Source: Cloacimonetes bacterium UBA5456 (lineage in GTDB: Bacteria > Cloacimonadota > Cloacimonadia > Cloacimonadales > Cloacimonadaceae). From it: a stretch of DNA of 39,128 bases. The notes under the pieces are model-generated. The model made no database searches. It saw nothing but the letters and a program-made list of their open reading frames with translations, and was not told the DNA's origin. A program made the translations under genes and the position numbers. Shown piece by piece: positions 1,772-18,704 of this stretch; position 1 is the first letter of the stretch; each line of letters opens with the position of its first letter. The DNA is taken from contig DIQS01000033.1 in NCBI GenBank assembly GCA_002427325.1, forward strand, positions 37,396 through 76,523. Direction: 5' to 3'.

Positions 1772-1787
1772 CACCTCGCATGAGGTG
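1772..1787 (+). promoter_or_regulatory. Hairpin CACCTC-gcat-GAGGTG abutting the SD of the first operon gene
   Basis: Perfect 6-bp stem at 1772-1777/1782-1787. The 3' arm runs into GGAGGG (SD), 4 nt before the ATG at 1797. Confidence 0.3.
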
Positions 1788-1796
1788 GAGGGAAGT

Positions 1797-2834
1797 ATGA
1801 AAAAAGTTATTTTGACACTTATCGTTGTTTCAACGATGTTTGGTCTGTTAAATGCAGCGCCATTTCAGACCCTTGGCATGCTGAGAACGCCAGACGCGTA
1901 TGTTTTGCCACACAAAGCAGCAGAATTTATGGTCGCAGGATACTATCTTGATATTGCCCAACCGCAAGATGCGGCATTTAAGGGCTTTATGCCTTATGCA
2001 ATGGTGGGAGCCGGCATATTAGACCGTTTAGAAATCGGTGCATTTGTCGGAAGCAAGGTCAACGATGAGCCTATGGTTTATTTTCTCAATGCAAAAGTAA
2101 AGATTTTGGAAGAGACAAACACCCTTCCGCAATTTGCACTTGGAATGGACAACATCCTCTCCAGCCAGAAGTATCATAATGGTCTTAACCTAAATCCCGG
2201 CGATGATTTTTATACCCATCCGGATAAGACCGACTATGAAAACTATTCAATCTATGGAGTTGTCTCGAAGCAGGCTTATTTCCTCGGTATGCCTTGGATG
2301 TTGAATGTTGGCATGGGATCAAATCGCTTTGCAGGACAGGTTAAACGCTCTCGTATCCTTCAATCAAGCTTTGTTTCTGCTGAGTTTTCACCCGTCAACA
2401 ATCTCGCTATTCAAGGCGAATTTGACGGTGCAGACTTTAATCTGGGTTTGAGATACAGCTATGATAATTTCTCATTCAAGCTGGGTGCTCAGTCCGTGGA
2501 AGACTTAGCGAAAAACAATGGCTATGAAGACAACCTTCGCGTTGCTTTCGCTGTTTCTTATCTCTTTGACAAGTATGCCGAAGCTCATCGCCGTCCTCAG
2601 CTTAGCAGCCTTAACAAGCCTGGAATGACCGGCGGCACTGTTGACGTTGGTTCCCAAGGTCAGGCCGGTGGGGTCGTTGTACCGCCCACAGGTTCCACGG
2701 GCACCGCACAAAGCATGCTTTCACCTGAAGTAAGAAACTTGTTAGAAGAGCTCAGAATCTTACGTGAAGAACGCAGTAAAGCACAGAAATCTTTGGACGA
2801 CTTACGTCTGCTTATCCAAGAACTGAAACAATAA
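1797..2834 (+). CDS. Putative outer-membrane beta-barrel protein with a Gly/Pro-rich linker and a C-terminal coiled-coil tail
   Basis: The ATG at 1797 is preceded by GGAGGG (the ORF track starts at GTG 1785). Signal peptide MKKVILTLIVVSTMFGLLNA. Alternating hydrophobic beta-strand patterns end in an internal beta-signal-like VAFAVSYLF. About 85 aa follow: GGTVDVGSQGQAGGVVVPPTGSTG, then the heptad-like EVRNLLEELRILREERSKAQKSLDDLRLLIQELKQ. Confidence 0.7.
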   Translation: MKKVILTLIVVSTMFGLLNAAPFQTLGMLRTPDAYVLPHKAAEFMVAGYYLDIAQPQDAAFKGFMPYAMVGAGILDRLEIGAFVGSKVNDEPMVYFLNAKVKILEETNTLPQFALGMDNILSSQKYHNGLNLNPGDDFYTHPDKTDYENYSIYGVVSKQAYFLGMPWMLNVGMGSNRFAGQVKRSRILQSSFVSAEFSPVNNLAIQGEFDGADFNLGLRYSYDNFSFKLGAQSVEDLAKNNGYEDNLRVAFAVSYLFDKYAEAHRRPQLSSLNKPGMTGGTVDVGSQGQAGGVVVPPTGSTGTAQSMLSPEVRNLLEELRILREERSKAQKSLDDLRLLIQELKQ

Positions 2835-2899
2835 CTAACATGTATATTGTGTAGCGTGGTGTGTAGGATTCATGCTTCCTAAACCCTTAATAGAAGTGC

Positions 2900-2926
2900 G
2901 CCAGGATGTTTCACAAGCATCCTGGC
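2900..2926 (+). other. Intercistronic hairpin (9-bp stem, no U-tract) between the barrel gene and the giant gene
   Basis: GCCAGGATG (2900-2908) pairs with CATCCTGGC (2918-2926). It is followed by acgctattgaag, so it is not a canonical intrinsic terminator. Confidence 0.4.
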
Positions 2927-2985
2927 ACGCTATTGAAGACGGCTTTATGCCATTGAACTTCTTGTGAGTAAAAAGTGAGCAGGTT

Positions 2986-5900
2986 ATGAGAAATTTTATA
3001 AAAGTATTCTTGATGATACTCTTGTTGCAGGCTTGTCTGTCTCTTGCCAATGCCTTCATCGAAAACCTTAGTGAAGAAGAGATATTAATCCTTGCCGAAG
3101 AGTTGCAAGAAGAAGACATAGAGATGCTTATGGAATTCATAAGCGAAGAAAAGCAGATGATGAGAGAGCTTTCAAAACAGTTCCTGATCGACGAGCTTCC
3201 CCAACTAATAGCACTTGATCCAGAGCAAGCAGGAATAGCATTGGAGAGCTTTTCCGAATCTTTCAACTATATGAGAGATGAGGAAGTCAGGTATCTTTTG
3301 GGACATCTCTATGCGCGTATAGGCCAGACGGATAGGGCTATTGACACCTTTGCCGCTTTGCTCGAAACAGATTTTGATCTTGATTCACGGAAAATGATGG
3401 GACTCATGTTCCACAGCATCTTGTCTGAACTCATAGAAGCGGGAGAAAATGAACTGTCATTCCGCTATCTGAATACTATCCTCAGCCACGGATTGGTGTC
3501 TGATGAACTCATACTCAGTTATCTCTATCTTTTTTCTGAATTAAATCAGGACAAACAAGATGTGCTCAGCACCATCCAATCCTATATGGAGAACAATGGA
3601 ACCCTGCTTGAAGTGATCCTTCCAGTTAAAAACTCAGTGTTATCCAGATTGGAACAAATTGATTTTGAAACTTTTTATCAGAACCCAAGTGAAAACAACC
3701 TTAAAGCTATTATCCGAGATATAGACCAAATTGAGATAGACCTTGGTGCATTAAATAGCATCGTTCAAGAAATGCCGAACACCTTGTTTAAGCCTCGCTT
3801 GAACAAGCAACATAAATCTGAGGTCAAGAAGCTCCAGGAGCTTAGAGACCATCTTACTGTGTATGCCGGAGTGCCTTTGCTCTCCGAACGGGTTCAAGAC
3901 CAAACTTTGGATATTATCGCACAAATCCGCGTAAGCATACAACAATACTATCGCACTCTTGACATCATTGAAGCCTATTTGAACAAATATTATGCAGACT
4001 ATGAGGCAGGCCTCCTTGTTGAAGATGAAATCTTTATGGGTGACCTCTATCTTGACAGTGCAATCCAGTTGGAGCAGACGGTTAAGATCTATGAAGAAAT
4101 GCTTGAGATCCTCGACGAACTGCTTTTGGAAGATATCGAAGCTGGATACCTCGAAGAACTGAGACAACAGCGTGAAGAGATCGTATCGGAAAAAGCTCGC
4201 ATCGAAGCTGCTCATAGAGAACTGCTCGCAAACGTTGAATTTGAGAGTAGCGAAGATATGATTATCTTTGAAGAGCTGCTTGACGGATATAACGACATTC
4301 AAGAAGAAGCTCGCCTAATGACCTTGATCTGTGACGAGATAGAAGATTTTGTGATGAACGATATGACAGACATCTTGGGCGTTGATCTCAAGCAAGCAAA
4401 GATTGATAGAGTAGATACCGGCATTCAAGAGCTTTTGGCGGATCAAGGTCTTATTGATGAGCTTGGCCAAGCTTATGAACAGTCTGTCACCGAGCTTGAC
4501 TTCATCACTCTCAAGCTAAAATATCGTCGCCAGATCGATGAATATGAAGCTTTTATCGCCACACAAAATGAACTTAGCGATGATGAGCTATTTGAAAACC
4601 AAGCAATACAGCGCGGTAAACTCTCTGCAATAGCTAACGAAATTGAGGCCTTCCGCAGAGAACATCCCAATTATCAGGGGATGATTCAGCCCACCGGGAT
4701 ATATTTTGCACAAGAAGCTGACCTTCATTATATGTTGGGTGAATTAGAGTATTATGCTCATCCCGAAGATATGACGATCGCACAGAATCATTTCCGCAGC
4801 GCTCTTAGATTAGATCCGAAATTCCCCGATAGAGACCTCGCTCTTTATAACCTTGCCTTCATCAGCACTGAACTCATCAGACAAGAAGTGGATAACAACA
4901 AGATTAGCTATCGCATGAATGCAAGAGTCAATGAAGAGCCTCCGGCAAACAGCATCTATTCCGTGGCAAACTTTGCCGAACCTTTTAACGCTCTTACCGA
5001 GATCGTGAATAACTATCCGAATTCAAAAATGCATGAAGATGCAATATATCGTCTCGGTCTTTTGAACTTTAGCTTTGCTCGCGACTCGAAAGACCCCGAG
5101 CAATATGAAGATGCTGCACTTGCCCACTTCAACCAGATCATTGCCAATGAGGATAGTCCTCTTTATTATGAGGCACTTTATCAGCGTGGTTGGGTTCGCA
5201 TGAACAGCTTTGAACACGATGTCTTGCGCCAGGCTATGGACGACTTTGTTTATATCCTCTTGGCCATCGATGCAGGTCACATAGAAGACCCTCAACTCGT
5301 GGCTGACTATCGTCAAGACGCCGTGGATAACATCGCCTACTGTCTCATTGCTTTTGACGGAACAGACTTCTATTCCCAGACCAAGAGTGTGGCTGAAGTT
5401 CAAAGAGTCTTCAATAACTATAGCAATGAAGAGGTGATGGAGCAGATCATTGACGGCGCAATTCGCAACAAGTTAGACCTCAGCGCATCCACGCAGGCTG
5501 TTGACCTGTTGGAACTCAAGCTGAATGCAGTCCCTTATTCCTATTATAATCCCGTCATCCTCGACTCTATCTTGGTTCTCTATCACAATGCCGGACAGGA
5601 ATTGCGCGATGACCAAGACCTTGATGCCATCACTCAGAACATCTATCAGAGAATGATTGATGAATATGGCTATGGTAGTAAATGGTATGACGTTAACAAA
5701 GATAAAGAAATCAGCCGTCAGCTTGACATCATAGAAAATGCTTATTCCCAAAAAGCTATTCGCTTGTTCAACAATTTTGCCAATAACATTGGACATGAGA
5801 CCCTAAACAATTATGACAAGCACATGGCAGTGTTTGAAAAATATGCAGAGCTGCACAATGATGACTATCTTGCCTTCAAGGCAGAACGTGATAGTGTCAT

Positions 5901-8838
5901 GGTGTTTAACTATGCAGTTTTGGCTTCAACAACCGAAGATTCAAAAGACTTTGTCTTGGCAATATCCAAGCTGAACGAATATAACGATAAATATCCCCAC
6001 AACACACGTTTCTTCGAATATGAGCAAATGACACTGGAATATGCCAAGGCTCTCTTCGTCAGAGCTCAAAATAACTTTGCTGACCCAGATTTTGTTCCCG
6101 TCGAAGGTGATTTTACTGACGAAGATGAGGCCTTCACATTCCTGCAAAATAGAACTACTCGATATATGAACGTTATTCGCCAAGAAGAATATTACACTGC
6201 TCAGAGACTCAGAGAAGCAAACGATCTGATTTTGCTCTTGGCAGATACTCAATTCATGCGCGAAAAATTGCCCGAGGCTACTCAGCTCTATTTGCAGGCT
6301 CTTCAAGAAGAAGATATCATGACAAATAGCCAAAAGAGAGAAACCTATCTCAAGCTTGCCGACATGAGTGAGCGTCAAGGTGAATATGCCAAGTCTGAGG
6401 GATGGTTCCGTCAAGCATTGGCATATGCCCAAAACTCTGAAGATGAAGCAAACATCAGACAGGATATCTTAGTTCAGATTCAAAACAGCTTTGAAAAAGC
6501 CAGCGAAAGCGGCGACTTCATCACAGAAGCTAATGAGCGTTTGCGCCTTGCTGCTGAGATGGGAGCCGGACGCGGCATTGAAGTCTTGGGTCAAAAGAAC
6601 GCTGCTGTGGAAGCTTTCACAAAAGCCGGAGCCTATCAACAGGCAATTGATCTCTTGATGGAATTAGCTGAAACTGACGATACTATCGATGCAGTGTATT
6701 ACCGCTATCACCAAGCCATCGAGATTGCAGAAGAAAAGATGCTCGACAAGGAATATGCCCAGGCTCTCGAATCAGAGTTTTTGACAAAGTATCCTGCAAG
6801 CCTCTATGCCTTCCAGTTGCGCTTGGCTTCAGTAAGTCGCAAAGCAGTGGCAGAAGAGCATGTTCAAGCCGCAGAAGGCTTCTTACAGCTCTTTAATGAA
6901 GCCAGAGCAAACACCATCGACTATGGTGACCAAGTGGTCAGCGAATTGCTCATGGACGCTATCCTGATGAACAGCAGAGCAAACCGCATTGAAGAAGAGT
7001 ACCGTTTGTGCCATCAATTCATTGAGCTTTACCCCGAGCTTCCCGAAGCACTGATATATCTTGAACACATGGTTGTGGGACACAGAGACAGAAATGAGAT
7101 GGACGAACATCTTCGTCTTGCCAAAGAACTCATGAAAAAAGATCCCTCGAAAGATGGATATTATAAATATTATGCCAATAGTGAGCTTCACAAGGTCGCT
7201 TTGCGCTTTGACGAAGCCTACATCGAAAAGGATTATACCCAAGCATTTGCTATCCGTGATGAATATCGCACAATGCAACATGGCTTTGAAAATGAGGGGC
7301 TGAGTTTTGATAACCAAGCTGTCTATAATATCTTTGCCCAAGTTCAGGCAGAATATGATGAGCTGCAGCGCAAGCTTGCCTATCTCAAGAGTTTTGACGA
7401 TAAGCTCAGTGCCATTGAGCACGGAGACTTCATGAGTAAGACTCCGAATCAGCACGTGAGAGTAAACAATCTTACGACATGGAATAGAAACTTAGAGAAC
7501 GGCGACCGTCGCATTCCGCTCTTTAACACGGCAACCTCTGCCGAAGTTAAAAAGGTGGAGAAGATTCTCAACGATGGCTTTGCCTCCGGATACTACTTAG
7601 ACAATGACCGCATCACGAGATCCTATAATCTCATGGCTAAAATCCATGAAAAAGCTGTAGATGTGTTGGACACACAAGTAAGAAGCTATTGGGAAATCAC
7701 CGGTGAAGGTCGTGAAAATAGAAATTACTATGGCGAAAACTTCGGGATTCTCGTAGAACAGACTGTCTGGCAACAGATCTTGCCTCATATTCAAGCATCT
7801 CTTGGCTATCACTCTTTTCTACATACAAACTATTATTTAGCGGGTTATGAAAACAGCTTTACGGAAGCTGCAATCACAGCCCTGAACAAATATGAACAGA
7901 TTCCTGAATATCGCACCGTGGACTATGTGCTCGACAACCAGTGGCAGATCACCGGCAATCCTCAGAGTGCAGACACAAACATCACGCAGATCAGGACTCC
8001 AAAGAATGTAGCTTTGGGTAGCATCAACGTTCCTGCCGAGAACACTCTCACCATCTCTCGCAGCCTGCAGTTTGACTTAGAGCCTGACTTTGCTCTACTT
8101 CAGCTCATCTTCCCTCTTGAAATGGATATCTGGGTTAATGGCAGTGCTGTGAGTTCCAGTTGGGTGCCCGTTGATACTTTGGACACAAAGAATGCTGATA
8201 CCACACGTTATAGTTATATGATCGACGGTTCATATTTTGCCCCCGGTGGAAATGAACTGCAGATTGTCTTTAACAATAACGACTCATCAAGTTTGCAGGC
8301 AGCCGCTGCAGTGAAGCTCTTCACCTCACGCGCACGCATCTTGGAGAACATTCCTCCCGTCAGTCAGAGCATTAGCAGCTCGACGAACTGGATTGTTTAC
8401 CACGTCGATGATGAAGGTGAGGAGATCAGACAAAGAGCAAATCTTGCTGAGAATTGGAACATCGAAAACGAAAACCTCTTCGACTGGGAGATCGCAGAAG
8501 CACTGCCGATCTGGATAGTCGAAGATGAAGAAACAACTATAAATAACATCGTATTTGAAACGGAATTCATGATTGACACTCAATTCCTTGAAGGCATGAT
8601 CGACATCATTGCGCCCGAATCTGTCACCGTCTATCTAAATGACGTAGAAATAGGTGGAGCAATGTTTGACTATGATCCCGAGCCTCTCACGGTCTATAAG
8701 AGTCAAATACTAATCGAGCCACATCAGGTGGTGGAAGGACGAAACGTATTGCGTTTTGAAGTGGAAAACTTCAGCGAATACCGTGGAATCATGGCAAACA
8801 TCCATTACCTCGTTGCCGGTAAGGAGGAAATCAGATGA
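2986..8838 (+). CDS. Giant (1950 aa) secreted or lipoprotein-like protein: acidic N-terminal segment, long helical TPR-like region, two C-terminal beta-sandwich (galactose-binding-like) domains
   Basis: Uninterrupted 5853-nt ORF. Signal peptide MRNFIKVFLMILLLQACLSLANA. TPR-like units include LLGHLYARIGQTDRAIDTFAALLE, NHFRSALRLDPKFPDRDLALYNLAF and KLADMSERQGEYAKSEGWFRQALAYA. The C terminus is beta-rich, with DIWVNGSAVSS...GGNELQIVFNN and VTVYLNDVEIGG...EGRNVLRFEVENF. Confidence 0.85.
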   Translation: MRNFIKVFLMILLLQACLSLANAFIENLSEEEILILAEELQEEDIEMLMEFISEEKQMMRELSKQFLIDELPQLIALDPEQAGIALESFSESFNYMRDEEVRYLLGHLYARIGQTDRAIDTFAALLETDFDLDSRKMMGLMFHSILSELIEAGENELSFRYLNTILSHGLVSDELILSYLYLFSELNQDKQDVLSTIQSYMENNGTLLEVILPVKNSVLSRLEQIDFETFYQNPSENNLKAIIRDIDQIEIDLGALNSIVQEMPNTLFKPRLNKQHKSEVKKLQELRDHLTVYAGVPLLSERVQDQTLDIIAQIRVSIQQYYRTLDIIEAYLNKYYADYEAGLLVEDEIFMGDLYLDSAIQLEQTVKIYEEMLEILDELLLEDIEAGYLEELRQQREEIVSEKARIEAAHRELLANVEFESSEDMIIFEELLDGYNDIQEEARLMTLICDEIEDFVMNDMTDILGVDLKQAKIDRVDTGIQELLADQGLIDELGQAYEQSVTELDFITLKLKYRRQIDEYEAFIATQNELSDDELFENQAIQRGKLSAIANEIEAFRREHPNYQGMIQPTGIYFAQEADLHYMLGELEYYAHPEDMTIAQNHFRSALRLDPKFPDRDLALYNLAFISTELIRQEVDNNKISYRMNARVNEEPPANSIYSVANFAEPFNALTEIVNNYPNSKMHEDAIYRLGLLNFSFARDSKDPEQYEDAALAHFNQIIANEDSPLYYEALYQRGWVRMNSFEHDVLRQAMDDFVYILLAIDAGHIEDPQLVADYRQDAVDNIAYCLIAFDGTDFYSQTKSVAEVQRVFNNYSNEEVMEQIIDGAIRNKLDLSASTQAVDLLELKLNAVPYSYYNPVILDSILVLYHNAGQELRDDQDLDAITQNIYQRMIDEYGYGSKWYDVNKDKEISRQLDIIENAYSQKAIRLFNNFANNIGHETLNNYDKHMAVFEKYAELHNDDYLAFKAERDSVMVFNYAVLASTTEDSKDFVLAISKLNEYNDKYPHNTRFFEYEQMTLEYAKALFVRAQNNFADPDFVPVEGDFTDEDEAFTFLQNRTTRYMNVIRQEEYYTAQRLREANDLILLLADTQFMREKLPEATQLYLQALQEEDIMTNSQKRETYLKLADMSERQGEYAKSEGWFRQALAYAQNSEDEANIRQDILVQIQNSFEKASESGDFITEANERLRLAAEMGAGRGIEVLGQKNAAVEAFTKAGAYQQAIDLLMELAETDDTIDAVYYRYHQAIEIAEEKMLDKEYAQALESEFLTKYPASLYAFQLRLASVSRKAVAEEHVQAAEGFLQLFNEARANTIDYGDQVVSELLMDAILMNSRANRIEEEYRLCHQFIELYPELPEALIYLEHMVVGHRDRNEMDEHLRLAKELMKKDPSKDGYYKYYANSELHKVALRFDEAYIEKDYTQAFAIRDEYRTMQHGFENEGLSFDNQAVYNIFAQVQAEYDELQRKLAYLKSFDDKLSAIEHGDFMSKTPNQHVRVNNLTTWNRNLENGDRRIPLFNTATSAEVKKVEKILNDGFASGYYLDNDRITRSYNLMAKIHEKAVDVLDTQVRSYWEITGEGRENRNYYGENFGILVEQTVWQQILPHIQASLGYHSFLHTNYYLAGYENSFTEAAITALNKYEQIPEYRTVDYVLDNQWQITGNPQSADTNITQIRTPKNVALGSINVPAENTLTISRSLQFDLEPDFALLQLIFPLEMDIWVNGSAVSSSWVPVDTLDTKNADTTRYSYMIDGSYFAPGGNELQIVFNNNDSSSLQAAAAVKLFTSRARILENIPPVSQSISSSTNWIVYHVDDEGEEIRQRANLAENWNIENENLFDWEIAEALPIWIVEDEETTINNIVFETEFMIDTQFLEGMIDIIAPESVTVYLNDVEIGGAMFDYDPEPLTVYKSQILIEPHQVVEGRNVLRFEVENFSEYRGIMANIHYLVAGKEEIR

Positions 8839-9113
8839 GGAAATCACTATTAATCCTGCTCTTCGCTTTACTTGGAATCGGCTTCCTTTCCGCCCAATAT
8901 ACAGGAGGCGGCTACATCAATGCTGAGGGAGTCTATGTAGAAGAAGAAGAGTTCGTAATTGAGTTGAGGGACATGGCTCCCGACTCTGGAATCTATAAAA
9001 TCAAATTAGATACCTTTTTCATGAGCTATAAATATAGGATGGAGCTCACGGATGAGTGTGTCGAAGAATACAGTGAAGAATTACTAAATACATGGCTTAA
9101 GGAGTCAAAATGA
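8835..9113 (+). CDS. Small (92 aa) secreted protein of unknown function, translationally coupled on both sides
   Basis: AAGGAGG lies 7 nt upstream of the ATG. ATGA overlaps the giant gene stop at 8835-8838 and the exbB start at 9110-9113. Signal peptide MRKSLLILLFALLGIGFLSAQ. Confidence 0.7.
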   Translation: MRKSLLILLFALLGIGFLSAQYTGGGYINAEGVYVEEEEFVIELRDMAPDSGIYKIKLDTFFMSYKYRMELTDECVEEYSEELLNTWLKESK

Positions 9114-9874
9114 AAAAGAAACTTAACATCCTGATAATGGTATCTCTGCTTTTAAGCATGGGTATGCTGTTTGCACAAGAGACTGAAGCTGCTGCTGCCC
9201 CAGCCCCTACTGGCAGTGTCAACTTTATCGAAATGTACACCACAAGCGGATTTTTCGCTCATCTCATCGCAATTGTCGTGCTAATTGGCTTAGCAATGGC
9301 AGTAGTTCGCTACATGCAGTTGTATGTGCGCGAGAAGATTGATGCTGAAAAGTTTTTCTTAAAGCTTAAAAACTTTATCAAAAACGATCAGATTGACGAA
9401 GCCATTAAGGTTGCCGGTGAATTCCGCGGAACTACAATGGGCTTTATTTTCTGGAGCGGCCTAACTGTTTATAAAGATGTACGCAAATCCGGTAAAACCG
9501 GCGAAGAAGCTCGCATTTCAGTACAAAATGCTTTTGACGAAGCTGTTCTCCAAACAGTTCACAAACTTGACGGCGGCCTTTTCTGGTTTGATACCCTTGC
9601 TCAGATTGCCACCTATCTCGGTCTTCTGGGAACCATTTGGGGCTTGATCGCATCTTTTAGCAGCTTGAGTGGTCTCACCGGTGCTGCTGCAAACGTAGCT
9701 CTTACAAATGGTATTCAAATGGCAATGGGAACGACAGCTCTCGGTTTGTTCGGTGCAATCCCGCTCACGCTTCTCAAAGGCTGGTTCTTCACCCGTGCAT
9801 CCAATATCATTAACAATATTGATGAATACAGCGTTAAACTCGTAAACCACATCAACAACTATATTAAGGGCTAA
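9110..9874 (+). CDS. exbB: MotA/TolQ/ExbB family proton-channel protein with an N-terminal signal peptide
   Basis: 254 aa. SD AAGGAG. Three TM segments follow a cleavable-looking leader (MGMLFAQETEAA). The family hallmark LGLLGTIWGLIASF is followed by the GIQMAMGTTALGLFGAIP helix. Confidence 0.9.
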   Translation: MKKKLNILIMVSLLLSMGMLFAQETEAAAAPAPTGSVNFIEMYTTSGFFAHLIAIVVLIGLAMAVVRYMQLYVREKIDAEKFFLKLKNFIKNDQIDEAIKVAGEFRGTTMGFIFWSGLTVYKDVRKSGKTGEEARISVQNAFDEAVLQTVHKLDGGLFWFDTLAQIATYLGLLGTIWGLIASFSSLSGLTGAAANVALTNGIQMAMGTTALGLFGAIPLTLLKGWFFTRASNIINNIDEYSVKLVNHINNYIKG

Positions 9875-9878
9875 GAGC

Positions 9879-10406
9879 ATGGCAGTATATCGTCCTTCGC
9901 AGGCGAGGCAACAAAAGGGCCAGACAGCACCTCAGGAACCAAATTTGATTCCTATTATGAACCTGTTTCTAACCATCATTCCGTTTTTGCTTTTGATGGT
10001 GACGATCTCACAGGTTGCGCTGGTCGCCCTTAATTTTTCCTCGGATGGAGGCGGAGGTGGAGAAGGTGGCGGAGATGGTGGCGGTGGCGATAAAGCCAAG
10101 CAAATCGAAATTCATCTCATGCTGACGGATAACCAAGCCTTGGGACTTTTCCCCGGCATGGAAGTTCGAGAGCCTGGTACTGACACTGTTAGATTACCTT
10201 GGGTACGCGAGAATATCTATGATTTTGACGGTTTAAATACTCTTCTGAAAGCAATGAAAGAGCGTAATACAAGTACTGAAGAAATCAGCATTGTCGCCCA
10301 CAATGATGTGATCTACGACACTTTGATCCGCACGATCGACCTCTGCAAAGATAATGGCTTTAGTACCGTCCATTACAAAAGCCCAAGAAGTACTTATTAT
10401 TATTAG
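9879..10406 (+). CDS. exbD: ExbD/TolR family protein (paralog 1) with a poly-Gly insert after the TM helix
   Basis: 175 aa. NLIPIMNLFLTIIPFLLLM is the ExbD-type N-terminal TM motif. The C-terminal ISIVAHNDVIYDTLIRTIDLCKDNGFSTVHY is the typical periplasmic domain. The insert is SSDGGGGGEGGGDGGGGDK. Confidence 0.85.
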   Translation: MAVYRPSQARQQKGQTAPQEPNLIPIMNLFLTIIPFLLLMVTISQVALVALNFSSDGGGGGEGGGDGGGGDKAKQIEIHLMLTDNQALGLFPGMEVREPGTDTVRLPWVRENIYDFDGLNTLLKAMKERNTSTEEISIVAHNDVIYDTLIRTIDLCKDNGFSTVHYKSPRSTYYY

Positions 10407-10426
10407 GAAGGGGGAGGATAAATATT

Positions 10427-10960
10427 ATGGCATTAAGAAGTTCCAAGCCCGGAACCAGAGTAGTCAGAAAAAAAGCTGATGATGTTCAAGGTCTTTCCAT
10501 TACATCGCTTTTGGACGTTCTGACGATTATCTTGGTTTTCCTCATCAAAAACGTATCGATGGAAGCCGTGAAGATTTCCGAATTGCCCGATATGATATAT
10601 CCGACTACTATCACCACTGAGAATTTGATGGAAAATGCAGCCGTGACACCTGTTAAGATCTATACAGATCGTGTCCTTTTGGGTAATGATAACCAATTAC
10701 TCGGAAGCCCTGCAGACCTCACCGAAAACCCTCAGGTGCGCTCGGATATGGTAAACTATTTGCGCTATGAATTCAACGTCATCCCAGAAGACAAAAAAGA
10801 TGACGCCTGTTTGATAGTGCAATCGGATTCAAATATCCCTTGCGGATATATCACGGAAATCGTTGGCGCAGCTGTCGGCACCGGTTTTGCGAATATTTAT
10901 TTTGCAACATTAGAAGATGAACAATGGCTACAACACCATGTTTCTTCTACTGGAAAATAA
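10427..10960 (+). CDS. exbD: ExbD/TolR family protein (paralog 2)
   Basis: 177 aa. SD GGGGGAGG. LSITSLLDVLTIILVFLI is the TM motif. CLIVQSDSNIPCGYITEIVGAAVGTGFANIYFAT is the periplasmic domain. Confidence 0.85.
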   Translation: MALRSSKPGTRVVRKKADDVQGLSITSLLDVLTIILVFLIKNVSMEAVKISELPDMIYPTTITTENLMENAAVTPVKIYTDRVLLGNDNQLLGSPADLTENPQVRSDMVNYLRYEFNVIPEDKKDDACLIVQSDSNIPCGYITEIVGAAVGTGFANIYFATLEDEQWLQHHVSSTGK

Positions 10961-10970
10961 CGGAGGTCAG

Positions 10971-12389
10971 ATGGCAAAGATATTAAGTTTAAGACTCAAC
11001 TATAAAGATAAGTTCCTGGATTATGCCAAGGAAGGTAAAGAGATCAAAAAGAGCTTTACCGTTGGATCTAACAAATTCATGCAATGGCAAATCCTTGATC
11101 CCAAGTTCCCGGACAAACACGTCTTAGTCAAAAAGAAAGGCGGGGAATATGTTTTGAACATGCTACCCGGCGCAAAGCTGAGCGTGGAAAAAGGAGGCAA
11201 TTCTGTAGATGCAAATTATCTAAAACAGAACAATTTGCTCTCCATGAACGAGCTTACCCTCAAAGAAGACATGAAGGGAACCCTTTCTCTGGCTCCCGAT
11301 TGGGAAGTGGAGTTTGAATACAGAACCCCTTGGGTTGTCGTGCTTACTCCCGAAGAAAAGGCAATTGTAGCCCAATATGCTCGCAGAGCAAGACCGGATG
11401 CAGTAGCCCGATTTAATCGAACCGTAATTTTACTTGTGTTGGCACTTACGATAGTATTCAGCATTATATTTGAGTTATTCCTCAAACCTGAATATAAAAC
11501 GCAAGCTGACACTATTTCTGAACTGTTACAATCGATGGAACAAAAAGCCCAAAAAGTGGAAGTATCAAAGCTTGATGCACCCACAACCGGTTATGATGTG
11601 CCCCCACCCGTTGAAGAAGTGACGGGAGATGATGCAGCTCCGACCACCGGTGCTGCAAGCTCAGGGGCTGCAAGACCAAGTGGACCCTCAGGTTTGGGGG
11701 CTGCAATGGGAGGATTTGATCCTAATGCAGTTTCTGCTGCTCCCACAATCTCCATCGTCACCGTTGCAACCGGATTCGCCGTAAACCGTCCCGGTGGCGG
11801 AAGACCCGGAAGCGGAAGTGGAACAGGCGGCAGTGGTGCAGGCGGTGGCGCAGGTAGTGCAGGAACCGTCTTTGATCCCACCGCATTGCCGGTCTCCGGT
11901 GATGTTGGAAGCGTGGCAACTCAAGGTCCTCGCACCAGTGGCTCACTTACTCGCCCCGAAGGCGCTGTCGGCACACACGTAACAGGAGACGCAAGTAAAC
12001 TTGCACCCAGCGGAAAAGCTTGGGGAGACATCGTAGCCCAACAAAGGATCGAAGCTGAATACAGGCAAATGGGACTTAGCACCGTTACAGAAGCTTCAAT
12101 CGGAACCTTGGATGAAGCAGGAAAAGCAAAGTATGCCAGTCTCAAAGACCAAGTCGAATCTCGCAAAGGACAGATCGAAACTGTCTATAGAGAGATGCAA
12201 ATCAGACAAAGCGTAAGCTTCACCATCACCATCTTTGTTGGAGCAGACGGCTCCGTTCGCGAATCAAAAGTAGTGCCAAATGGACAATATCCTGAAGCAT
12301 TCGTCGCGAAAGTAAAACAAGTTGTCGATAGCTGGAGATTCAACGTAAGAGAAGCAATGCCATATCAATTCCGCATGCGTGCTGGTTGA
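10971..12389 (+). CDS. TonB_C-type energy transducer-like protein with an ~150-aa FHA-like cytoplasmic N-domain, one TM helix and a long Gly/Pro/Ala/Ser linker
   Basis: I prefer the ATG at 10971: GGAGG lies 4 nt upstream, it sits 10 nt after the exbD stop, and the track start at 10917 would overlap exbD. TM helix VILLVLALTIVFSIIFELFL. The linker is about 180 aa of low complexity. The C terminus SFTITIFVGADGSVRESKVVPNGQYPEAFVAKVKQVVDSWRFN resembles TonB_C. Confidence 0.75.
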   Translation: MAKILSLRLNYKDKFLDYAKEGKEIKKSFTVGSNKFMQWQILDPKFPDKHVLVKKKGGEYVLNMLPGAKLSVEKGGNSVDANYLKQNNLLSMNELTLKEDMKGTLSLAPDWEVEFEYRTPWVVVLTPEEKAIVAQYARRARPDAVARFNRTVILLVLALTIVFSIIFELFLKPEYKTQADTISELLQSMEQKAQKVEVSKLDAPTTGYDVPPPVEEVTGDDAAPTTGAASSGAARPSGPSGLGAAMGGFDPNAVSAAPTISIVTVATGFAVNRPGGGRPGSGSGTGGSGAGGGAGSAGTVFDPTALPVSGDVGSVATQGPRTSGSLTRPEGAVGTHVTGDASKLAPSGKAWGDIVAQQRIEAEYRQMGLSTVTEASIGTLDEAGKAKYASLKDQVESRKGQIETVYREMQIRQSVSFTITIFVGADGSVRESKVVPNGQYPEAFVAKVKQVVDSWRFNVREAMPYQFRMRAG

Positions 12390-12418: not shown

Positions 12419-12446
12419 GCCCCGCTATCATGGCGGGGCTTTTTAT
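12419..12446 (+). terminator. Rho-independent terminator closing the envelope operon
   Basis: GCCCCGC (12419-12425), loop tatcatg, GCGGGGC (12433-12439), then TTTTTAT. It begins 30 nt after the stop at 12389. Confidence 0.8.
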
Positions 12447-16838: not shown

Positions 16839-18704
16839 TCACTTTATAATGCTTAGTTTTTTAATGTCATATCTTCCGCCATCCTCTTCATATCTAATGA
16901 AATAGATGCCCGAGGAAGGGAATATTCTGCTGGATAGTTCCAGCGTGGATGACCTTTGTTTTTCTTCAAATATCTTCTGACCGCGCAGGTTATAGACAGT
17001 CACTCTGCCACCTTCTCCGTTGAGTTTGCAATTGAAATCCTGTTGACCGTAACCCGGATTGGGATAAATCTCAATGGCGACTTGCGGGGTCTCTTCTTCA
17101 TGCTCCGGCCCTTCGGACTCCATGCTAAAGTCTTTATAGCCAACATGATGGATCTTTCCGGTGCCACCTTGTTGCAGCCAATAATAGATGCGATAGTCGG
17201 AGGAATATCCATCATCGAGCCCAACTGTGCTGAAACTATAGCTTTTGCCGGCAGATTGGCCTTTGAGTATCTTGTGATTAATGGTGTCGGCACGGGCTAT
17301 CCATCTGCTAAGGATGTAATAATTTCCATCATCCTCTCTGGATAGATTAAATAATCCCACATGAAGCTTGGAATTGAGGACGGGGTTAGCGGCTTGTGTA
17401 TCAAATAGTTGAGTGTTATCGTTATCAAATCTTATCGTCACTTCTTTGCGTGCCGCGCTTTCCGAATCTACCAGATTGAGGGTGGACCTGCTGATGAAGC
17501 TGCGATATTTCGACAATCCATTTGTGGCATTTTGAAAGTTTTGTGAATATGCCGTATTGAGCCCTGTTATCAGCTTCTCGCCGACAATCATCGTGCGCGG
17601 TAAAGAATTGAATCGATAGTCGTTAAAGCGTTGTTGCGATGGGATATTGCCCGGTTCATCCGTGAGCAGCGGATAATATTCTATGGGATGCATTTTCTCT
17701 GATAAAATAGACTCTTGATAATATCTTATTGTGTTGGCATCCTGGCTGCGAACGAAGTTTTCCACCAAATATATGGGATATTCGTCCTGATAAACATTTA
17801 AATTAACGGTCTTTTTATTGTTTACAAGCAGCGTATCGTTCTCAACAAGAGAAGAGCTAATCTTCGCTTCTATACGAAGTTGAGTGGGTTCGCTCGGCAA
17901 AAGAAATGTTGCACTCGTCAGCTCGATATCGTGTTGGGTCTGTCCGAACAAATTTTGGGGAACGCTGAATTCAAGATTTTCATAACCGGTTTCGCCCGGG
18001 CGGCTGAAAATCAGGTTCAGCTTCGTGTCATAAGCCATCTGTTGGCTATGGTTATATACCTTTAAGACGGGATAAACTGGGTTGCCCGGAAGAATATCAC
18101 CTGCGAAGCTGATCTGCTCCAATTCCAAGCCGTCTTGCGGGAACACATAGTCTCCCAAAAGGCCAAAAAGCAGCTCCGCCGCAAATCCGTTTTGCTCAAA
18201 ATTTGTTAAGGTCTGGATGTCACCATATTCCTGCATGTAATAGCTGTGACTGCCTCCGCCCGCACTTGCAGCAACGAATTTATTGAGGATATTTGTTTGA
18301 TAATCAACGAAGAGCCACGCTGCTTCCGCACTATATTGAGTGTTAAAATGATGGTCGATGATGTGATCGTCAACAGTGATTGTCGCAAACTCTATGAGTG
18401 TGCCGGGCTCGCCGGCATTATCGCTATATAGCTGAATCATAGCATCATTGCCAATGCTCGGGAAATATAATCTTGCGCCGCGAGTGGTGAAATAGACCTC
18501 TGATACGGAGGAATATTTACTGCGAAAATCAAAGCGAACCGCCCAAGTTGAGGGGCCAAAAAAGTTGTAGTCTTCTGTGCCGCTGTGATGACGGAAATGA
18601 TATTCACGTTCGGGCGGAAAGACCTCCTCACCGCTGGAAGGATGATAGCCTATGCCAAATAAAAGGCCAAAAAGGAAGAAGGCTATGGGCAATATGCGCT
18701 TCAT
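16839..18704 (-). CDS. Secreted protein of unknown function with a type-A T9SS C-terminal sorting domain
   Basis: 621 aa. Signal peptide MKRILPIAFFLFGLLFGIG. The last ~80 aa (VAIEIYPNPGYG...VTVYNLRGQKIF...SGIYFIRYEE...KKLSIIK) match the Por/T9SS CTD pattern. The start overlaps the ribF stop by 4 nt. Confidence 0.8.
   Translation of the reverse strand: MKRILPIAFFLFGLLFGIGYHPSSGEEVFPPEREYHFRHHSGTEDYNFFGPSTWAVRFDFRSKYSSVSEVYFTTRGARLYFPSIGNDAMIQLYSDNAGEPGTLIEFATITVDDHIIDHHFNTQYSAEAAWLFVDYQTNILNKFVAASAGGGSHSYYMQEYGDIQTLTNFEQNGFAAELLFGLLGDYVFPQDGLELEQISFAGDILPGNPVYPVLKVYNHSQQMAYDTKLNLIFSRPGETGYENLEFSVPQNLFGQTQHDIELTSATFLLPSEPTQLRIEAKISSSLVENDTLLVNNKKTVNLNVYQDEYPIYLVENFVRSQDANTIRYYQESILSEKMHPIEYYPLLTDEPGNIPSQQRFNDYRFNSLPRTMIVGEKLITGLNTAYSQNFQNATNGLSKYRSFISRSTLNLVDSESAARKEVTIRFDNDNTQLFDTQAANPVLNSKLHVGLFNLSREDDGNYYILSRWIARADTINHKILKGQSAGKSYSFSTVGLDDGYSSDYRIYYWLQQGGTGKIHHVGYKDFSMESEGPEHEEETPQVAIEIYPNPGYGQQDFNCKLNGEGGRVTVYNLRGQKIFEEKQRSSTLELSSRIFPSSGIYFIRYEEDGGRYDIKKLSIIK

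Follow-up and report, generated by a model that had tools for sequence, protein, structure and literature searches.

A seven-gene, Tol-like motor operon of the Cloacimonadota: conservation, predicted parts and a proposed envelope-spanning role

What does a proton-driven motor of the Ton/Tol type serve when no TonB-dependent receptor stands beside it? The question is raised by a stretch of 39,128 nucleotides (nt) from Cloacimonetes bacterium UBA5456 (assembly GCA_002427325.1, contig DIQS01000033.1, positions 37,396 to 76,523), here called the window, in which an earlier note had singled out an operon of seven genes. To our knowledge, 5:2 motors driven by the proton-motive force (PMF), namely Mot, Ton, Tol, Agl and Gld, are the only known means of delivering energy to the bacterial outer membrane. 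The seven genes are a fixed, translationally coupled unit. On balance we favour the reading that they encode one dedicated, PMF-driven, envelope-spanning machine of the Tol-Pal or Agl-Glt kind, a core trait of the Cloacimonadota, the most likely output of which would be coupling of the outer membrane to the wall. It would be a seven-part version of such a motor, fixed in a whole phylum of abundant, uncultured anaerobic-digester bacteria, with partners that match no named family.

The seven-gene operon and its conservation

The operon, as given by the list of open reading frames (ORFs), and its terminator are as follows.

1797..2834, + strand: gene for an outer-membrane protein (the barrel), 345 amino acids (aa)
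2986..8838, + strand: gene for a giant secreted protein (the giant), 1950 aa
8835..9113, + strand: gene for a 92-aa secreted protein (p92)
9110..9874, + strand: gene for a TolQ/ExbB-like proton-channel subunit, 254 aa
9879..10406, + strand: gene for ExbD/TolR-like subunit 1 (ExbD1), 175 aa
10427..10960, + strand: gene for ExbD/TolR-like subunit 2 (ExbD2), 177 aa
10971..12389, + strand: gene for a force-transducer candidate (P7), 472 aa
12419..12446, + strand: intrinsic terminator at the operon end, a GC-rich 9-bp stem (12419-12439) and then TTTTTATATT

All seven ORFs lie on the plus strand between 1797 and 12389, where the earlier note had placed them, and the sequence bears out its 4-nt ATGA overlaps (8835-8838, 9110-9113), after which come gaps of 4, 20 and 10 nt, likewise as noted. 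Shine-Dalgarno (SD) boxes of good quality precede every downstream gene. The terminator, described before as clean, is indeed a 9-bp GC-rich hairpin with a T-run. Among orthologues the start codons of the barrel (ATG 1797) and of P7 (ATG 10971) are conserved. The operon is flanked by yraN, which is divergent, and by priA.

How widely is this arrangement kept? A P7 profile was scanned over one genome per GTDB species, and the loci that it found were then probed by tblastn with the seven window proteins. The scan returned 50 loci, all in Cloacimonadota assemblies. Wherever the upstream DNA suffices (in about 50 Cloacimonadota species), all seven genes stand in identical order and at near-identical spacing; short contigs display only those operon genes that they reach. 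Full-length relatives of P7 extend down to 33% identity and are restricted to Cloacimonadota. The P7 profile was also run exhaustively, as a hidden Markov model (HMM), against 1.84 billion representative proteins; it had 131 matches, about 90 of them full-length family members. When P7 members were looked up in an assembly index, eight of eight stood in the operon context, as do all 50 of the genome loci. The four most divergent members that were looked up, from lineages that the exhaustive search alone had reached, have the order yraN, barrel, giant, small protein, ExbB, ExbD, ExbD, P7; the products of these deep lineages measure 329-343 aa (barrel), 2140-2197 aa (giant) and 74-91 aa (small protein).

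The order outlasts the sequences. It is kept even where the giant has dropped to 17-30% identity, and the giant stands at 25-30% identity where ExbB is still at about 58%. The length of the giant lies between 1922 and 1997 aa in 39 species. In 35 of 35 distinct species the p92 and exbB genes overlap by 4 nt and the exbB-exbD1 gap is 3-4 nt; the giant and p92 genes overlap by 4 nt in 25 of the 35. Such an arrangement is far beyond chance and is not an accidental neighbourhood. The earlier note had called the motor genetically welded to the giant and barrel genes, and in the related genomes these do occur together, always with exbB-exbD-exbD-transducer and in fixed order. Orthologues are found side by side in every locus that is long enough, so the dispersal that would speak against the link is not seen.

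The giant gene itself is split at two loci. In one deep lineage it forms two pieces of 665 and 1457 aa (L059:1444-7835). In L057 (1231-7675), a long-read contig and probably an error-prone one, it lies in four pieces, and the close relative L058 has it intact. Either split could be real fission or an assembly error.

The motor and its transducer

If the channel subunit is a member of the ExbB class, which branch of that class does it resemble? It carries the LGLLGTIWG motif that had been used to recognize it, and it matches Pfam MotA_ExbB (PF01618) at 6.8e-22, 78 bits against a cut-off of 22.9. It also has a cleavable signal peptide. The channel threonines lie within an invariant LGLLGT(175)IWG and a GT(208)T(209)ALG motif; T175 and T208/T209 are invariant in 29-48 orthologues, and we take them to be equivalent to T145/T178 of TolQ. 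Against NCBIfam models the protein scores 76.7 bits with tolQ and 50.4 bits with exbB, both far under the equivalog cut-offs. The tolQ model (TIGR02796) is thus the best-scoring one, though its cut-off of 221 is not reached and the protein is not TolQ proper by that standard. The profile of the family, compared with the Protein Data Bank (PDB), finds TolQ structures best (4.5e-17) and ExbB next (1.4e-11). By these profile scores the channel protein stands closer to TolQ than it does to ExbB.

The two ExbD paralogs that had been claimed both exceed the Pfam ExbD (PF02472) cut-off of 25.4, ExbD1 at 37.2 and ExbD2 at 27.4 bits. They are not alike. ExbD2 retains the proton-binding aspartate of the membrane helix (Asp30, in SLLDVLT), and it is invariant. 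ExbD1 has an asparagine at that position (Asn28, in VPIMNLF), which does not vary in 49 sequences or in any of the deeper and sister lineages, and a Gly-rich insert follows its membrane helix. N28 and D30 both fall on Pfam profile position 15, provided that the match is gapless from the Pfam coordinates; their equivalence is drawn from those match coordinates and from the common P-x-x-[D/N] spacing. A profile-profile alignment of the ExbD1 and ExbD2 families gave nothing, and in sequence searches neither ExbD reaches the TolR/ExbD structures. Their sequences mark ExbD1 and ExbD2 as ancient, non-equivalent paralogs with the proton-binding Asp only in the second. A natural stator of this predicted single-Asp, heterodimeric kind would be useful for probing rotary models of ExbD/TolR.

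The same Asn/Asp split is found in the deep lineages, in a sister system (L062, below) and in 22 metagenome loci of another lineage, which have plain ExbB-ExbD-TonB clusters and no giant; most of the 22 have their Asn-type ExbD joined to a further ExbB-like domain in one protein. The cluster is widespread on JGI/ENA metagenome contigs (L061, L063-L084), where it encodes an ExbB, an ExbB-ExbD(Asn) fusion of about 435 aa, an ExbD(Asp) and a TonB-like protein. Since L061 and L063-L084 have the Asn/Asp pair, the stator class is older and broader than the Cloacimonadota operon. In L061 the gene after next is SecA by Pfam, and in several other such loci an unannotated ORF of about 1035 aa stands there.

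What kind of protein is P7? We modelled it with AlphaFold2 from an alignment of 31 sequences. The model has an all-beta domain at 1-118 (an 11-strand, FHA-like beta-sandwich), a long helix that includes the membrane segment (about 150-172), a disordered stretch at 192-349 and a C-terminal beta-beta-alpha-beta fold (415-471); the folded parts have a predicted local distance difference test score (pLDDT) of about 85. The linker, some 160 residues, is rich in Gly, Ala and Pro, and two conserved helices separate it from the C-terminal domain. Searched with Foldseek, the N-terminal domain finds FHA folds (6ccd, probability 0.96, with a weak E of 0.09). The C-terminal domain finds the C-terminal domains of TonB and TolA (9dc4_T, probability 0.97; 2gsk_B; 2x9a_B). 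Pfam FHA does not match P7, and one of the 31 family members matches VI_FHA (0.031). Compared with PDB sequences, the P7 profile finds linker or coiled-coil noise alone.

The C terminus of P7 had been called TonB_C-like. At the level of family membership this did not stand for the window protein, which has no match to TonB_C (PF03544, PF13103 or TIGR01352). At the level of fold it did, and it gains from sub-threshold family matches in NCBIfam and from transitive matches to true TonB_C proteins. Pfam TonB_C is matched by four of the 31 members, at E of 0.002 or worse, and tonB_Cterm by two. The NCBIfam model of the AgmX/PglI C-terminal domain (NF033768) is matched by 28 of the 31 (best E = 1.6e-6; window P7 17.7 bits against a cut-off of 40), and a Leptospira TonB-like model by 15. 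The P7 profile also reaches proteins that pass TonB_C (P0177, 29.5 bits). TonB and TolA have an SHLS motif with an essential His in the membrane helix (PMC12204202); none of the 31 aligned members has a His in the P7 membrane helix, RFNR...LKPE. Taken with the models, P7 is best described as bitopic, with an FHA-like fold in the cytoplasm, a long, disordered linker in the periplasm and a C-terminal fold of the TonB/AgmX type.

The layout of FHA-like domain, membrane helix and TonB_C was not found outside the P7 family among the 131 matches, which come mostly from unknown taxa. The matches that are not family members are short proteins with the C-terminal domain only, four TonB-like proteins that lack an FHA domain, and a single fusion to a caspase. 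Cloacimonadota also encode short proteins (about 125-200 aa) that consist mainly of the P7-type C-terminal domain (P0139-P0170); in P0168 this domain is fused to a caspase (Peptidase_C14) domain.

Could the motor then be the housekeeping ExbB-ExbD-TonB energizer of TonB-dependent receptors encoded elsewhere, the giant, p92 and the barrel being accessory or unrelated? The order exbB-exbD-exbD-tonB is a common one, the operon shares with ExbB-ExbD-TonB systems membership of Pfam MotA_ExbB and ExbD and a C-terminal fold like that of TonB, Asn/Asp ExbD pairs do occur in giant-less ExbB-ExbD-TonB clusters (the 22 metagenome loci), and the P7 profile reaches bona fide TonB_C proteins. We nonetheless think this quite improbable. 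The absence of a TonB-dependent receptor from the window, noticed before, was upheld by inspection of the ORFs and by a Pfam scan of ten otherwise unassigned ORFs, which revealed neither a plug nor a receptor gene; nor do the precomputed Pfam families given for the flanks of the 12 loci that have called genes include a receptor. The window transducer has no match to Pfam TonB_C (a model matched by 4 of the 31, as against 28 of 31 for AgmX/PglI), lacks the TonB/TolA SHLS His and has an extra cytoplasmic domain. The channel is nearer to TolQ. The motor is joined to three more envelope proteins, and the ATGA coupling of giant, p92 and exbB is phylum-wide.

The envelope partners and the likely output of the machine

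What might the motor act upon? The giant begins with a signal peptide ending ...A|Q, and its net charge is -181. Up to about residue 1550 it is prone to helix, as an alpha-helical/TPR solenoid would be, and beyond that to beta structure. The window protein falls slightly under the TPR threshold (TPR_7, 25.9 against 27.9) and well under that of the ybgF model (26.9 against 90.1 bits); its orthologues pass TPR thresholds (TPR_19 at 38.5, TPR_2 at 34.6). The family profile finds a CpoB structure at 3e-5, and CpoB/YbgF and BamD are its best TPR matches. None of the gliding_Glt models matches the giants. The C terminus has no match by sequence. We modelled its last 600 residues with AlphaFold2 from six sequences, and the model shows helical repeats and then two galactose-binding-like beta-sandwiches (about 1665-1780 and 1850-1945). 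With these, Foldseek finds the carbohydrate-binding module (CBM) of RsgI, a rhamnosidase, BcsB, modules of glycoside hydrolase families GH35 and GH2, and a fungal lectin, with E down to 2.6e-8, low TM-scores and pLDDT of 50-75. The giant had been described as a secreted TPR/beta-sandwich protein, and the signal peptide, the CpoB/BamD-type matches and the modelled sandwiches all agree with that description. As modelled, it is a secreted TPR solenoid with C-terminal domains that resemble sugar-binding ones.

Two other assignments of the giant were ruled out: as a lipoprotein, there being no conserved lipobox Cys, and as cargo of a type IX secretion system (T9SS), there being no Por_Secre_tail match. 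Word-indexed searches with the giant, as a single sequence or as a 27-sequence profile, gave the window protein and one 78% relative despite the existence of dozens of orthologues. The prefilter was probably saturated by low-complexity acidic words.

A sister of the whole system is found on contig L062 (25-11020; Logan SRR19214162). In the same order it encodes a TPR protein of 715 aa, a TPR giant of 1799 aa, a secreted protein of 107 aa, ExbB, an Asn-type ExbD, an Asp-type ExbD and a TonB-like protein. Its giant (P0207) ends in the same beta-sandwich, the C terminus aligns with that of the window giant, and the rhamnosidase beta-sandwich region is found at 3.2e-6. It differs in that the transducer has no FHA-like domain and the giant is divided over two genes with clear YbgF/BamD-type repeats (YbgF 136 bits, BamD 87 bits, both passing); the contig ends before any barrel gene.

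The 92-aa protein is secreted, with a mature form of about 70 aa, is translationally coupled on both sides and has no family match in Pfam. Its last codons, AAG GAG TCA AAA TGA (9099-9113), contain the SD box and start codon of exbB, and this exbB ribosome-binding site within the end of p92, AAGGAGTCAAAATGA, is identical in 41 of 41 orthologues. The invariant C-terminal KESK was for that reason rejected as a motif of the protein: what is kept there is the ribosome-binding site of exbB, the codons themselves being identical in all 41. The Trp that precedes KESK is the sole clear conservation at the protein level.

The barrel starts with a signal peptide, followed by some 240 aa of beta-rich domain ending ...SYLF, a Pro/Gly-rich linker and a conserved, C-terminal, amphipathic coiled-coil helix. 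Pfam YjbH (PF06082) is matched by 28 of 36 orthologues, the best at 9.9e-6, all sub-threshold and covering only some of the 658 model positions; for the window protein the score is 12.8 bits, the cut-off being 24. Compared with PDB sequences, the barrel profile finds linker or coiled-coil noise alone. These matches point to a miniature outer-membrane protein, probably of barrel topology, distantly related to YjbH/GfcD.

How do these parts compare with known machines? To Tol-Pal they are alike in the TolQ-like channel with its conserved pore threonines, in the TolR/ExbD-like plug subunits, in a bitopic transducer whose linker is long and non-helical and whose C-terminal fold is of the TolA/TonB type, in a periplasmic protein built of CpoB-type TPR units, and in a universal, single-copy, housekeeping context. 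They are unlike in that the Cloacimonadota operon lacks TolB and Pal, has two non-equivalent TolR-like subunits, one without the Asp, and adds p92 and a YjbH-like outer-membrane protein. Its transducer has a cytoplasmic FHA-like domain and no SHLS histidine, and its TPR protein has 1950 aa and sugar-binding-like domains, as against some 260 aa for CpoB.

The motor genes have in fact been catalogued before. The supplement of a survey of Tol systems lists those of Ca. Cloacimonas acidaminovorans as ‘tolQ-tolR-tolA-agmX’ (Williams-Jones et al. 2025, PMC12204202). In that entry (‘Candidatus Cloacimonetes’) the ExbD2 orthologue WP_015425431.1 is labelled a too-short TolA and the P7 orthologue agmX, with no mention of the giant, the 92-aa protein or the barrel; this locus is the only one available there as a Tol candidate of Ca. 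Cloacimonas, and a Pal-TolB-like hybrid is reported from elsewhere in Ca. Cloacimonas (PMC12204202). On the evidence here, which is that of sequence, WP_015425431.1 is a TolR/ExbD paralog and not TolA, and the protein labelled agmX is the transducer. The earlier note had put the system forward as its best candidate for an undescribed one. That holds for the giant, p92 and the barrel, which the catalogue entry lacks, and does not hold for the motor genes (PMC12204202). Full-text literature searches that paired Cloacimonadota with TonB, ExbB, outer membrane or TonB-dependent brought up no description of the seven-gene system.

The same survey describes clusters of a gene for a TPR protein, a tolQ-like one, two heterologous tolR-like genes and a vWA transducer, and expects more 5:2-motor systems (Williams-Jones et al. 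2025, PMC12204202). These PVC-group clusters share with ours the TPR gene ahead of the tolQ-like gene, the two non-identical tolR-like genes and a non-canonical bitopic transducer. There, however, the transducer ends in vWA and keeps the SHLS/His, and there is no giant, FHA-like domain or YjbH-like protein (PMC12204202).

Is the machine instead a surface conveyor of the Agl-Glt/Nfs type, whose motor would move an outer-membrane complex, a surface polysaccharide or a coat polymer in gliding or in building a capsule or sheath? Much in the layout recalls such systems. Myxococcus GltG consists of an FHA domain, a membrane helix, about 124 residues of disordered linker and a C-terminal domain of the TonB type, and has been modelled docking on AglR5QS (PMC11761067). 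The P7 layout is GltG-like (an FHA-like domain, a membrane helix, some 120-160 aa of disordered linker, a TonB-type C-terminal domain of AgmX/PglI subtype), and one TolQ-like protein is combined with two different TolR-like proteins, as in AglRQS (PMC11761067). In both, the periplasm contains TPR proteins of large size and one small protein (compare GltF), and the outer membrane contains beta-barrel partners, predicted ones in our case. The Agl-Glt ‘core complex’, aglRQS with gltD/E/G/C, makes up one operon, its function unknown, in Fibrobacter and some proteobacteria (Luciano et al. 2011, PMC3169522), and exists in non-gliding bacteria too. To this may be added that the outer-membrane protein resembles YjbH, an exopolysaccharide-associated family, that the sugar-binding-like end of the giant resembles BcsB and CBM modules, that a gene like that of glucuronyl C5-epimerase lies two genes upstream, and that Agl-Nfs is known to move a polysaccharide coat.

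On the other side, the giant, p92 and the barrel have no sequence-detectable homology to Glt proteins, the gliding_Glt models missing the giants. The exhaustive profile search listed, among matches mostly from unknown taxa, no FHA-TM-TonB_C protein outside the P7 family. P7 has one FHA-like domain and not two, and a single 1950-aa TPR protein stands in place of three. The operon has none of the GltI/J/K/A/B/H, MglA and AglZ partners, the Myxococcales-specific Glt parts being absent, and it belongs to another phylum, uncultured, in which gliding is not known. It is single-copy and universal and lies among housekeeping genes, which suits a core role better than an accessory one. We consider a conveyor unlikely, and any relationship to Agl-Glt, if there is one, very distant. 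The broader claim, that the operon is closer to Tol-Pal and Agl-Glt than to nutrient uptake, is borne out by the TolQ-like channel, the CpoB/BamD-like TPRs, the GltG-type layout of the transducer and the AgmX/PglI match in 28 of 31 members.

How, then, might a Tol-like machine for outer membrane-wall coupling be assembled from these seven products? We propose that an ExbD1(Asn)/ExbD2(Asp) heterodimer sits within a pentamer of the TolQ-like protein, so that the stator has just one proton site. P7 would sit on the rim of the motor with its FHA-like domain docked beneath it, as modelled for Myxococcus GltG. Its linker would span the periplasm, crossing the peptidoglycan, and its C-terminal domain would reversibly grip the giant scaffold, the coiled-coil tail of the YjbH-like protein, or both, in the manner of TonB and TolA; the three secreted proteins inherited along with the motor are its obvious candidate partners. 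The C-terminal beta-sandwiches of the giant might hold glycan, either peptidoglycan or surface polysaccharide, and the 92-aa protein may be a small adaptor. The output would be an energized coupling of outer membrane to wall, that is, envelope integrity and division, and the machine would stand in for the canonical tolQRAB-pal operon, none having been found for Cloacimonadota. A core role like that of Tol-Pal is suggested because the context is universal, single-copy and housekeeping, because the channel and the giant have affinities to TolQ and CpoB, and because this locus is the sole Tol candidate in the catalogue (PMC12204202). A substitute for Tol-Pal would bear on the evolution of outer-membrane tethering and constriction in FCB lineages.

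Several observations weigh against this proposal. TolB and Pal are absent from the operon and from the window, as judged by ORF inspection and Pfam. The Foldseek E-values of P7 are weak (0.03-0.5), and the model of the C terminus of the giant has a mean pLDDT of 60 from only six sequences. The sequence links to GltG, FHA, TonB_C and YjbH all lie under curated thresholds for the window proteins.

Leader RNA, promoter-like box and neighbouring genes

If the last six genes are so tightly coupled, does the barrel gene belong with them? The non-coding elements that bear on this, and those upstream of the barrel, are the following.

2835..2985, + strand: conserved leader in the barrel-giant spacer, with Box 1, a hairpin and Box 2; phylum-wide
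2864-2881, + strand: Box 1, TAGGATTCATGCTTCCTA
2900-2926, + strand: covarying 11-bp hairpin, from the comparative alignment
about 2969-2985, + strand: Box 2, AAAAAGTGAGCAGGTT, directly before the giant ATG
1700-1705 and 1722-1727, + strand: conserved promoter-like box, TTGACG, 16 nt, TATTTG, from an alignment of about 40 upstream regions; promoter function predicted
1772..1801, + strand: hairpin of the barrel 5' untranslated region, CACC-loop-GGTG (1772-1787), abutting the SD box GGAGGG and the start codon; conserved in the alignment

The barrel could be a separate transcription unit that lies upstream by chance, the functional unit being the six coupled genes. Its gap to the giant gene has a median of 145 nt and a range of 72-853 nt, and holds a strong conserved hairpin and boxes of its own. 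In the deepest lineages, however, the gap is 2-35 nt, and the two genes are adjacent in every lineage. No promoter consensus is seen in the spacer, and the hairpin was rejected as a terminator since it lacks a U-tract, unlike the true terminator of the operon. A chance neighbour thus seems doubtful, if less so than the conveyor or the housekeeping TonB set, and we keep the barrel as the first part of the machine.

The leader hairpin is a conserved RNA structure by its covariation: 93.6% of cells are paired, compensatory changes occur at nine of the 11 pairs, 500 shuffles gave none that was as good, and in slid controls 26-40% is paired. In each of 36 loci Box 2 was found once, and it was found at no other place. 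The leader has no Rfam match.

What might Box 1 do? Its core, TTCATRCTTCC (2869-2879), is the exact reverse complement of the barrel initiation region GGAAGTATGAA (1791-1801), about 1.07 kb away, which spans the tail of the barrel SD box, the AUG and the next two bases. RNAduplex predicts a duplex of 11-12 bp between Box 1 and this translation initiation region (TIR) in about 30 of 35 species. The duplex 10-mer occurs at these two places in each locus, with merely two other matches in about 1.2 Mb. Natural variants of Box 1 are A-to-G and keep G·U pairs on the sense RNA. The predicted pairing suggests long-range translational control of the outer-membrane protein, and the linked leader RNA is a separate, testable case of such control. 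The inverted repeat was also considered as a DNA inversion site and rejected: it is on the sense RNA alone that the A-to-G variants yield G·U pairs, and about 50 assemblies show no inverted arrangement.

A more ambitious version of the proposed machine brings this RNA in. We offer it tentatively, as possible but going further than we would wager on. The operon would be a third Tol-type branch beside Tol-Pal and Agl-Glt, replacing Tol-Pal throughout the phylum, in which a single-Asp stator, an obligate ExbD(Asn)/ExbD(Asp) heterodimer, pulls a TPR-lectin scaffold of 1950 residues tied to a mini-YjbH, and long-range RNA pairing of the barrel ribosome-binding site with the leader box sets the synthesis of the outer-membrane part.

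Upstream of the barrel, the promoter-like box between the divergent yraN and barrel genes contains a palindrome, TTGAC-N9-GTCAA (1700-1718), which may represent face-to-face -35 boxes shared with yraN. Rfam and tRNA scans of the window were both empty.

Two neighbouring genes on the minus strand deserve mention. At 136-1188, two genes upstream of the operon, lies a gene for a membrane-anchored protein with a D-glucuronyl C5-epimerase C-terminal domain (8e-30), which may connect the region to glycan modification. At 16839-18704 is encoded a 621-aa protein with a type IX secretion C-terminal sorting domain (Por_Secre_tail, 29.3 bits), and similar T9SS cargo genes flank the operon at other loci. 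Since such cargo genes occur both in the window and at these loci, the organism has a T9SS.

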